NCBI GenBank assembly: GCA_046497275.1 | Contig: JAWOFX010000089.1 | Span: forward strand, 30,001 to 62,000 | Source: Promethearchaeia archaeon | GTDB taxonomy: Archaea > Asgardarchaeota > Lokiarchaeia > Sigyniarchaeales > SOKP01 | Direction: 5' to 3' | Length of the DNA stretch: 32,000 nt | Shown here: positions 9,180-10,553 of the stretch, in pieces | Position numbering within the stretch: position 1 is the first letter of the stretch | Layout: the number at the start of each line of letters is the position of its first letter | Program-made: the position numbers and the translations under genes | The notes under the pieces: model-generated | What the model was told of the DNA's origin: nothing | The model's database searches: none | What the model saw: only the letters and a program-made list of their open reading frames with translations

Positions 9180-10553
9180 TTATTTACTTTTTATTTTCGA
9201 ATAATAATCATATAATAATCTATATCCTCTTACAGCTCTTTCTACTTCATTTTCAAAAACAGGAATTTTTAGTTCAGAGGCTGTATCAATTACTCTTTTC
9301 GCCCCTTCACTCTCTGCTTGAATTAAGGTTGCTATTATTGGTTTATTCGGATATTTCTGTTTTATCTTTTCAAAGATACTAAAATCAAATTCAATTTCTA
9401 TAAAAAATTCTAATGCTAATATTAAAGCATTTACAGATTTATCTTCAAGAAGGGTATGTGAAGACGTATTATAAATGCCACAAATTTTTGTTCCAATAAA
9501 TCTATCTGGAGGCCAGTAATCAACTGGGTTTCCAGAAATGCAAGTTGATCCTCCCACTTTTTCTAAGATTTTTTCTCTATGTTTGTTCTCAAGTTTGGCT
9601 AGTGAAAGATTCTGTTTACGCATTTCTTTTGCGATTATATGGATTGCTCCGCTACTTGGACCAATTATTCCTAAATTCGGACCCATAGGTTCAGGGCACC
9701 AAAGAAAAACTTTAGCGAAATCGAATAATTCAATATAATTCTCAACTGCCAATCCTCCTACATTTTTAAGTTTTCTCTCTCTTTCAATTTGTTTTCCGAC
9801 ATAAAAAAATAATACTGGTTTTTTTGGAGCGCACAATTTAACAGCATCAATTAAATCATCAGATATTTCTCTTAAAAATAACAATATAACTTGGGTTCGC
9901 TCATCTTTTAAAAAATAATGTAAAACATCAGATTCTCTAATATGTAATCCGTGACCTAAATGAATAACTTTAGATATAGGCACATCTTGGTTAGGTGACC
10001 ACCAGCCTAATGCTCCCGCCAATCCACCCGATTGAGCAATATAACTCGCCCCAGATTCAATATTTCTATTTTTTTTCATTATATGCTGTCGAACTGGAAT
10101 TATTGAAGTGGTAAAATTATTAATAAAATTGATAATACCTATCATTGAAGGTCCCATATACTGTACATCATATTTCTCTGCTATCTTATTCAAATGATTT
10201 AATATTGAGGTATTTTCGGTGTGAAAAACTAATTGATCTTCATAATCATCGCGTAATTCTGATTCAATGACGATATATTGAATCCCATATTTAGCTAAAC
10301 GTTCAAAAGTGGTAAGAATTTGTTTCCCTAATACAATCACAGCTAATTGAGGTACTTCTGGTAGATCTTCCAAGGAATGGTATGATTTTATCCCTAATAT
10401 CTCATCTGCATTGGGATTTAAAATATAGATTGTACCACGATAAAATATTTCAAGTAAATTCTTTAAAATTGTATAATTGAATGTATACTCTTTTCTTGAA
10501 ACTCCAACTATAAGAATACTTTTTGGATTAAAAAATGGTGTGAGATCCGTCAA
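9180..10553 (-). CDS. ADP-forming acyl-CoA synthetase alpha-subunit (AcdA)-like protein, apparently lacking the catalytic His loop
   Basis: FFNPKSILIVGVS CoA-binding Rossmann fold, MGPSMIG, AQSGG and GNPVD motifs. TTG start with upstream GGAG. No SHTG segment after KPVLFFYVGK. Confidence 0.82.
   Translation of the reverse strand: MTDLTPFFNPKSILIVGVSRKEYTFNYTILKNLLEIFYRGTIYILNPNADEILGIKSYHSLEDLPEVPQLAVIVLGKQILTTFERLAKYGIQYIVIESELRDDYEDQLVFHTENTSILNHLNKIAEKYDVQYMGPSMIGIINFINNFTTSIIPVRQHIMKKNRNIESGASYIAQSGGLAGALGWWSPNQDVPISKVIHLGHGLHIRESDVLHYFLKDERTQVILLFLREISDDLIDAVKLCAPKKPVLFFYVGKQIERERKLKNVGGLAVENYIELFDFAKVFLWCPEPMGPNLGIIGPSSGAIHIIAKEMRKQNLSLAKLENKHREKILEKVGGSTCISGNPVDYWPPDRFIGTKICGIYNTSSHTLLEDKSVNALILALEFFIEIEFDFSIFEKIKQKYPNKPIIATLIQAESEGAKRVIDTASELKIPVFENEVERAVRGYRLLYDYYSKIKSK

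Follow-up and report, generated by a model that had tools for sequence, protein, structure and literature searches.

What remains of an NDP-forming acyl-CoA synthetase (ACD) once the swinging loop that carries its phospho-histidine has been deleted? This question is raised by a gene of a Promethearchaeia archaeon that lies in a stretch of 32,000 nucleotides (the window; positions 30,001 to 62,000 of contig JAWOFX010000089.1), which is part of the contig designated C109 of a 3.85-Mb, 98.9% complete genome and has a G+C content of ~29%. The encoded protein, referred to here as the ACD-like protein, is an ACD-superfamily pseudoenzyme with a new probable partner, namely a radical S-adenosylmethionine (SAM) protein encoded nearby; as the partner of this uncharacterized radical SAM family, the loop-less protein alternates with a GNAT. 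The features concerned are the following.

9180..10553 (-): ACD-like gene, an intact open reading frame (ORF) of 457 aa with a TTG start, encoding subdomains 1, 2, and 5 of the NDP-forming acyl-CoA synthetase fold without the phospho-histidine loop
9753..9821 (-): junction of the missing swinging loop, reading KPVLFFYVGKQIERERKLKNVGG, as located by alignments with own-genome paralogues, orthologues, library representatives, and PDB structures
12498-13649 (+): radical SAM protein, 383 aa, matching Pfam Radical_SAM

Anatomy of the ACD-like protein

The TTG at positions 10551-10553 is the sole start codon that preserves the conserved N-terminus of the protein, there being neither an ATG nor a GTG upstream of its FFNPKS motif, and the same start is used in five orthologues of its own GTDB family, f1 (among them those of loci L012, L013, L040, and L053). 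Pfam detects only CoA_binding_2 (residues 11-140) and Succ_CoA_lig (residues 169-264), both above their cut-offs, and no DNA-binding or signalling output domain. With TIGR02717, the NCBIfam model of AcdA-alpha, the protein scores 190 bits versus a cut-off of 567, and thus falls below membership. An AlphaFold2 model built from 17 orthologues (predicted local distance difference test, pLDDT, 87; predicted template-modelling score, pTM, 0.89) was matched by Foldseek to the ACD alpha structures 2csu, 4xyl, and 8wzu with template-modelling (TM) scores of 0.81-0.85. The model, these matches, and the Pfam domains agree that the three-subdomain alpha fold, consisting of a Rossmann CoA-binding and two flavodoxin-like subdomains, is present. 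In public annotation, relatives of the protein are named "CoA-binding protein," "acetyltransferase," or "acyl-CoA synthetase (NDP forming)."

The segment missing at the junction consists of G..G.RAA.SHTG.LAG and the start of the next helix, 18 residues in all: K245 is encoded at position 9821, and the 23 residues KPVLFFYVGKQIERERKLKNVGG end at position 9753. When the 13 ACD-alpha proteins of the genome are aligned, this 18-column block is absent from the ACD-like protein alone, and S/T-H-T-[GAS] lies inside the block in 12/12 of the other paralogues. The closest solved relatives are PH0766 (2csu) and the alpha subunit of Ca. Korarchaeum ACD1 (4xyl), and HMMER alignments to both open a gap of ~17 residues exactly across SHTGSLAG. 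Furthermore, the block is present in the 31 canonical representatives of the library alignment, and the phospho-His is 100% conserved in the 82 canonical sequences compared.

The loop deletion that an initial annotation, made from the nucleotide sequence alone, had placed at 9821-9753 is thus confirmed with exact coordinates by comparison with the 12 paralogues and by the 2csu and 4xyl alignments. Its remark that a GNAT fusion is lacking is also correct, given that Pfam finds only CoA_binding_2 and Succ_CoA_lig, as is its remark that no ATP-grasp beta subunit is encoded nearby, the only two ATP-grasp_5 matches of the genome lying on contigs C44 and C185 and not on C109. A missing beta neighbor means little, because the genome has 12 canonical ACD-alpha paralogues and only the two beta matches (C44:30132-32306, fused in a 725-aa ORF, and C185:2-424, at a contig end), the alpha and beta matches together being spread over C44, C185, and 11 other contigs; with such numbers, each beta subunit would need to serve many alphas, provided that every alpha is active.

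Conservation and spread of the deletion

Relatives of the window's genes in the databases bear the names Lokiarchaeota or Promethearchaeota. A protein search with the ACD-like protein returned 624 relatives, the best 120 of which are 446-466 aa long and 68-99% identical to it; within its family, identity is 61-85%. In a sample of 301 genomes of the phylum, in which ACD-like matches were accepted at E <= 1e-60 and families are those of GTDB, the gene was found in 84/301 genomes, always as a single copy (counts by family are given below). The loop is absent from every orthologue extracted (17 sampled), down to 30% identity and across seven Asgard families. A profile search of 1.84 billion representatives returned eight clusters that lack the loop at 361-608 bits, seven of them full-length and one a fragment, with one more loop-less fragment further down the list; the next full-length match scores 322 bits, and all lower ones examined have SHTG. 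The source names of the loop-less clusters are Freyarchaeia/Sigynarchaeota and Atabeyarchaeia and, outside Asgard, Ca. Syntrophoarchaeum butanivorans. The loop-less protein was found only in Asgard archaea and in the alkane-oxidizing Ca. Syntrophoarchaeum.

The loop-less proteins are monophyletic with respect to ten canonical representatives (Shimodaira–Hasegawa-like approximate likelihood ratio test, SH-aLRT, 100), and the inner topology of the group follows genome kinship; His-less orthologues therefore form a conserved clade, a point that the initial annotation had proposed to check. In Lokiarchaeia, the ACD-like protein is about as conserved as the neighboring uL16, its identity in the same loci tracking or exceeding that of uL16 (69 vs 69%, 62 vs 52%, and 48 vs 46%). 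The deletion is old and has a single origin, and the protein is under strong purifying selection.

An assembly error or a decaying pseudogene would be the most trivial account of such a gap, and its probability is negligible. The same deletion is seen in the 624 database relatives and in 84/301 genomes at a family identity of 61-85%, the frame is intact, independent DNA runs contain the same loop-less stretch, and contigs from salt-lake RNA libraries span 9553-9848, including the junction, with 100% identity, one of them extending over 9553-9804. These RNA-library contigs attest a real sequence and are no proof of transcription, DNA carry-over being possible. Error and decay are therefore excluded, because the deletion is conserved across orthologues, the frame is intact, and the independent DNA runs agree; far from being unique to one assembly, the deletion recurs in each of the 17 sampled orthologues as well as in Ca. 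Syntrophoarchaeum.

Residues lost, retained, and newly invariant

More detailed comparison of 18 loop-less and 82 canonical sequences (residue positions in window numbering) showed that the loop block, E228, K251, G301 (always S), and D309 are lost in every loop-less member. Column 228 is E in 99% of the canonical sequences, whereas R, K, I, C, or D, and never E, occurs in the loop-less clade. E228 is the presumed equivalent of the essential Glu218-alpha of Pyrococcus furiosus ACD and Glu208-alpha of Escherichia coli succinyl-CoA synthetase (SCS), as reported by Brasen et al. 2008 and Fraser et al. No substitute catalytic His is invariant among the 18 loop-less sequences, H198 being found in 15/18.

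Retained in the Rossmann CoA subdomain are G17, S19, N32, P47, and Y58, and elsewhere G134, G139, G176 (in the first power helix), K195, G200, D217, K245, P246, N342-P343-D345, D371, and K404. A further set of residues is invariant specifically in the loop-less clade, namely P68, R155, G177, L178, G183, W184, Y273, S301, P349, E382, E386, I387, Q412, and E414, several of which are located on the two power-helix elements that frame site I in ACDs. Both power-helix N-termini are kept and site I is remodelled, with SGGL-GWW and PSSG at the two power helices.

Since the loop and the near-invariant Glu at position 228 are both lost in every member, the residue pattern indicates that the ligase chemistry is almost certainly gone. 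The view that the protein is no working ACD alpha subunit is upheld: with the loop, E228, K251, G301, and D309 missing and no invariant His, it is very unlikely to be one. Judging from its retained residues, the CoA subdomain looks serviceable, least certainly so in Lokiarchaeales. For annotation, the loop-less genes, which some sources call "acyl-CoA synthetase (NDP forming)" or "acetate--CoA ligase," should be left out of the tally of ATP-yielding ACDs when the metabolism of Asgard archaea is reconstructed; the UniRef name of the Ca. Syntrophoarchaeum loop-less protein is acetate--CoA ligase (ADP-forming).

A radical SAM gene as the conserved neighbor

In the 14 loci retrieved with long flanking sequences, only one neighbor is conserved across all lineages, namely the radical SAM gene, which lies within 8 kb of the ACD-like gene in 12/14. 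In loci L044, L046, L047, L048, L049, and L050, it is directly upstream of the ACD-like gene on the same strand, with the two genes abutting or overlapping, and in 15/15 genomes of families f3, f4, f10, f15, and f21 the two are <=220 bp apart. Overall, a radical SAM gene was detected in 81/84 genomes with the ACD-like gene. The three exceptions are G249, in which the ACD-like gene starts at a contig end, G300, in which it is on a ~3-kb contig of a 71%-complete genome, and G189, an assembly of ~180 contigs. A hand tally of the f1 genomes with rows in both tables gave 54 with both genes, which are on the same contig and <=8 kb apart in 37/54; in 4 the distance is 13-16 kb, and in 13 the genes are on separate contigs, most of the assemblies in these two groups being fragmented. 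For most lokiarchaeial genomes, the distance is 1-8 kb.

The radical SAM protein passes NF045502 ("variant_rSAM") with 155 bits versus a cut-off of 125. Its nearest relative is TIGR04043/MSMEG_0568 (NitD), with which it scores 265 bits versus a cut-off of 304, and on these scores it belongs to a sister group of TIGR04043 and is not a member. The conserved radical SAM Cys triad is C139-x8-C148-x2-C151, the first Cys of an apparent CX3CX2C motif not being conserved; further motifs are an invariant N-terminal GRKGGAGPxGGRY and a conserved C-terminal AGCxRCxxC (CxxCxxC). The model of the protein has a pLDDT of 92, and its nearest folds are lipoyl synthase and BioB/HydE-type barrels, the similarity being restricted to the core (TM ~0.46).

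A GNAT as the alternative partner

With matches in 177/301 genomes, the radical SAM gene has a wider distribution than its ACD-like neighbor. In families that have it without the loop-less ACD, a conserved protein of ~160 aa that passes Pfam Acetyltransf_1 is encoded next to it: the GNAT gene abuts the radical SAM gene in 9/10 fetched loci, the exception, L061, being a second radical SAM copy in genome G041. Moreover, the two proteins are sometimes joined. Locus L063 has a 581-aa ORF in which radical SAM protein and GNAT are fused (Radical_SAM 168-323, GNAT 445-550), and in genomes G022 and G079 both matches, radical SAM and GNAT, fall within a single open frame of 545-549 aa. The distribution of the three genes in the 301 genomes is as follows.

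f1: radical SAM 61/68; loop-less ACD-like 61/68; GNAT 0/68
f2: radical SAM 7/7; loop-less ACD-like 7/7; GNAT 0/7
f3: radical SAM 1/1; loop-less ACD-like 1/1; GNAT 0/1
f4: radical SAM 1/1; loop-less ACD-like 1/1; GNAT 0/1
f10: radical SAM 5/5; loop-less ACD-like 5/5; GNAT 0/5
f15: radical SAM 2/3; loop-less ACD-like 2/3; GNAT 0/3
f21: radical SAM 6/6; loop-less ACD-like 6/6; GNAT 0/6
f9: radical SAM 66/76; loop-less ACD-like 0/76; GNAT 67/76
f11: radical SAM 1/1; loop-less ACD-like 0/1; GNAT 1/1
f14: radical SAM 18/19; loop-less ACD-like 0/19; GNAT 19/19
f17: radical SAM 3/4; loop-less ACD-like 0/4; GNAT 3/4
f18: radical SAM 4/5; loop-less ACD-like 0/5; GNAT 5/5
f20: radical SAM 1/1; loop-less ACD-like 0/1; GNAT 1/1
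17 other families: no match for radical SAM, loop-less ACD-like, or GNAT

In this sample, the two partners do not overlap: a GNAT match occurs in 0/91 genomes of the ACD-like families, and the loop-less gene in 0/106 genomes of the GNAT families. The genome of the window itself has no tblastn match to the GNAT, and a search for hidden divergent loop-less copies in five GNAT-type genomes found none, 28/28 of their ACD-alpha homologues keeping the loop and the His. The same pairing is seen in the only non-Asgard holder of the loop-less gene found, the butane-oxidizing Ca. Syntrophoarchaeum (contigs LYOR01000004.1, locus L066, and JAOQII010000003.1, locus L067), both genomes of which combine the loop-less gene with an orthologue of the radical SAM gene (36-37% identical) and gave no GNAT match.

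Proposed role and competing explanations

The simplest reading of this distribution is a non-orthologous displacement, in which a radical SAM enzyme needing a partner of a CoA-thioester-binding fold would use a GNAT in some Asgard archaea and an ex-ligase ACD-alpha fold in Lokiarchaeia, Freyarchaeia, Atabeyarchaeia, f10, and Syntrophoarchaeum. At what we judge to be about an even chance, the ACD-like protein has displaced the GNAT and serves the radical SAM enzyme as a partner subunit that binds (acyl-)CoA and is no ligase. The anatomy and conservation of the protein, the linkage of the two genes, and the non-overlapping distribution of the partners have been shown, whereas CoA binding, complex formation, and chemistry are inferred.

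An ancestor lost the swinging phospho-histidine segment once, together with E228, while retaining the Rossmann CoA-binding subdomain and both power-helix N-termini and gaining the new set of invariant residues. Its descendant would fill the role that a small GNAT has in other Asgard lineages and that a different GNAT family has in the bacterial nit1C cluster. The protein may hold a CoA thioester with the acyl end in the remodelled site I, which the loop deletion would open to the radical SAM partner, and this partner may act on, or together with, the CoA-bound acyl group, a logic like that of Elp3, which is a radical SAM and GNAT protein. More tentatively, and with appreciably less confidence than the partner role itself, the ACD-like protein and the Cx8Cx2C radical SAM protein could form an undescribed two-component enzyme in which the ex-ligase presents a CoA-bound acyl group to the radical SAM active site by this Elp3-like logic, with an ACD fold substituting for the GNAT and the loop deletion as the adaptation that opens the site.

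Several observations weigh against the assignment as a partner subunit. In the Lokiarchaeales families f1 and f2, the two genes form no operon: they are divergent, uL16 lies in the interval, and some genomes have them 13-16 kb apart or on different contigs; in Ca. Syntrophoarchaeum they are unlinked, with the radical SAM gene on another contig. No fusion of the radical SAM and ACD-like proteins was found among proteins >812 aa, which is weak evidence. Motifs near the CoA/site-I region are changed in f1 and f2 (GF at 100-101, GPN to GPS at 136, N201, and G26 to N/S), so that CoA binding in the f1 protein of the window is not assured. On the tree of radical SAM proteins, the partner label clusters and can be explained by only ~2-3 changes, so that the independent events are few, related genomes not being independent. 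Finally, a GNAT is an acyltransferase, whereas the ACD-like protein has no assignable catalytic role, and "displacement" may therefore hide a changed chemistry.

The initial annotation had offered a choice between a stand-alone sensor of CoA esters and a subunit with an altered mechanism. A free-standing, non-catalytic sensor or regulator of CoA or acyl-CoA, with targets unrelated to the radical SAM gene and acting, for example, by allostery as in the Pat domain, would fit a kept ACD-like fold with its Rossmann CoA subdomain, the precedent of the His-less ACD-like domain of PatZ, which binds acetyl-CoA and regulates the GNAT, and the looser gene order of Lokiarchaeales and Syntrophoarchaeum just described. 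However, the two genes abut, often with overlapping stop and start codons, in the 15/15 genomes of the five families outside Lokiarchaeales, both are present in 81/84 genomes without a cognate GNAT ever being found alongside, and the protein lacks a DNA-binding or signalling output domain; the gene belongs to a conserved two-gene module, and a stand-alone sensor is unlikely and not supported. The proposed subunit with an altered mechanism comes closer, except that its partner is the radical SAM protein and not AcdB. Such a partner might also serve the radical SAM enzyme in structure or maturation without binding CoA, as a scaffold or by docking a non-CoA substrate through R155, W184, E382, E386, and E414. 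The erosion of motifs in the lokiarchaeial subclade (GF, G26, and the Asn residues of GPN and GN) and the strictly invariant new residues without counterpart in canonical ACDs speak for such a scaffold, which is nevertheless improbable given that the core CoA signature (G17, S19, N32, P47, and Y58) and both power-helix N-termini persist and that the protein alternates with a GNAT, a user of CoA thioesters.

Canonical ACD reportedly makes acyl-phosphate from acyl-CoA and phosphate at site I (Brasen et al. 2008), and a partial or new catalysis on CoA thioesters without the phospho-His (phosphorolysis to acyl-phosphate, hydrolysis, or acyl transfer by new glutamates) could feed or follow the radical SAM step. 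Site I is kept in remodelled form (SGGL-GWW and PSSG) with E382, E386, and E414 invariant, and a catalytic protein would be the truer substitute for a GNAT acyltransferase; yet the near-invariant Glu at 228 is lost in all members and there is no precedent, leaving this explanation a slim chance. Continued service as the alpha subunit of an ADP-forming ligase, with its beta subunit encoded elsewhere and another residue in place of the phospho-His, would be compatible with the genome's 12 canonical alphas and 2 ATP-grasp_5 matches, for which beta subunits shared by many alphas make a missing neighbor prove little. Such a ligase is highly improbable, with the loop and the canonical Glu gone clade-wide, no invariant His, and a TIGR02717 score of 190 versus 567 bits.

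Neighboring genes and the lipoyl lead

The remaining features of the window that flank the two genes are listed below.

6202-7665 (-): GCS2-like ligase
7906-9171 (+): 421-aa protein without a Pfam or NCBIfam family match, a possible accessory gene
10774-11400 (-): uL16
11610-12233 (-): membrane protein
13751-14509 (-): DUF166
14768-17841 (+): cluster a short distance downstream of the radical SAM gene, encoding methylmalonyl-CoA mutase large subunit, B12-binding subunit, and MeaB GTPase

The 421-aa gene is convergent with the ACD-like gene, with 8 bp between them, and encodes a protein whose N-terminus is acidic/Lys-rich and whose C-terminus is rich in Cys (CxC...C...CxC), with a hydrophobic segment that probably spans the membrane. 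It adjoins the ACD-like gene in 7/7 f1/f2 loci with long flanks, at 27-54% identity and in the order-level clade only. Both uL16 and the 421-aa gene are therefore outside the core module, their conserved adjacency being confined to this clade. RNA-library contigs cover the 421-aa gene in 4/4 runs.

Within 5391-7665 (-), the 487-aa GCS2/YbdK-like carboxylate-amine ligase, the family match of which is weak and partial (Pfam residues 149-183), adjoins a class-I glutamine amidotransferase/peptidase C26 gene, with which it may form a gamma-glutamyl-type pair. The mutase also adjoins the radical SAM gene in locus L051, the linkage not being conserved beyond f1; with this cluster nearby, methylmalonyl- or succinyl-CoA could be candidate ligands.

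The best PDB folds of the radical SAM model being lipoyl synthases, the module was considered as an alternative lipoyl synthase. A LipA was not found in the window's own genome, although three GcvH are encoded there. This candidate is strongly weakened by a bona fide LipS2 encoded in the genome (327 bits versus a cut-off of 270), which accounts for the missing LipA; the own-genome loci reported with LipS2/GcvH are C69:83021-83944 and C109:63952-64311. In the phylum sample, LipA and the variant radical SAM protein are nearly mutually exclusive, with 3/301 genomes containing both and the radical SAM gene absent from 62/65 LipA genomes, and LipA was found only in f3, f4, f6, f7, f16, f20, f24, f27, f29, and f30. 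Because LipS2 explains the absent LipA and GcvH is near-universal (290/301), this anticorrelation probably reflects lineage structure.

Comparison with known systems

The ACD alpha subunits PH0766 (2csu) and Ca. Korarchaeum ACD1 (4xyl) share with the ACD-like protein the 1-2-5 fold (TM 0.84, 22-24% identity), the CoA_binding_2 and Succ_CoA_lig domains, the Rossmann signature, and both power-helix N-termini. Unlike them, the ACD-like protein has neither the 18-residue loop nor E228, K251, G301, and D309, scores far below the TIGR02717 cut-off, and has a radical SAM gene, instead of one for an ATP-grasp beta subunit, as the linked neighbor of its own gene.

To our knowledge, ACD-like modules without the His have so far been recognized solely in bacterial Pat enzymes, where they are regulatory domains with a GNAT fused to them. 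The Pat/PatZ enzymes (YfiQ; 9it0/9isq) resemble the system described here in having a His-less ACD-fold module (TM 0.81) tied to GNAT-type chemistry. The ACD-like domain of PatZ, a non-ligase, takes up acetyl-CoA in its N-terminal CoA-binding part, the acetyl group lying in the intersubunit cleft (PMC12184503). The analogy with Pat made in the initial annotation holds for the absence of the His and fails for the loop: PatZ retains a loop-length segment without the His, whereas the loop-less clade deletes the segment. Furthermore, PatZ contains ATP-grasp subdomains and a C-terminal GNAT fusion (~880 aa), in contrast to the 457-aa ACD-like protein, which comprises no more than the alpha part and is paired with a radical SAM enzyme in genomes without a cognate GNAT match. 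The longer relatives found are Pat-type ACD-GNAT fusions, all of which score <=253 bits and lie outside the range of the loop-less clade. New with respect to Pat, then, are a free-standing protein and a deleted loop.

In the bacterial nit1C cluster, the radical SAM gene nitD is next to the acetyltransferase gene nitE (PMC8567248). The NitD/NitE pair (MSMEG_0568/0567 type) is thus similar to the GNAT-type Asgard lineages, in which a related radical SAM protein is encoded beside, abutting or fused to, a GNAT. It differs in that the Asgard radical SAM protein falls below the TIGR04043 cut-off and in that an ACD fold takes the GNAT position here; the Asgard GNAT itself has no NCBIfam match at E <= 0.001 to any MSMEG_0567/Sll0786-type model. 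The likeness to Elp3 is one of architecture only, that is, radical SAM plus GNAT, and identity of the module with Elp3 is ruled out, a true Elp3 being encoded elsewhere in the genome (666 bits). Full-text literature searches gave no matches for MSMEG_0568, for TIGR04043, or for Asgard combined with radical SAM and CoA-binding, and an ACD-fold protein in the GNAT position is not described in the literature searched.

Overall, the ACD-like protein appears to exemplify a ligase fold recruited after losing its chemistry and, if the partner assignment is true, offers a natural case of a pseudo-ligase displacing a GNAT within the same enzyme. For the radical SAM family, the bacterial relatives of which (NitD) are also unexplained, this alternation provides a testable handle, namely two interchangeable partners that are both CoA-binding folds.

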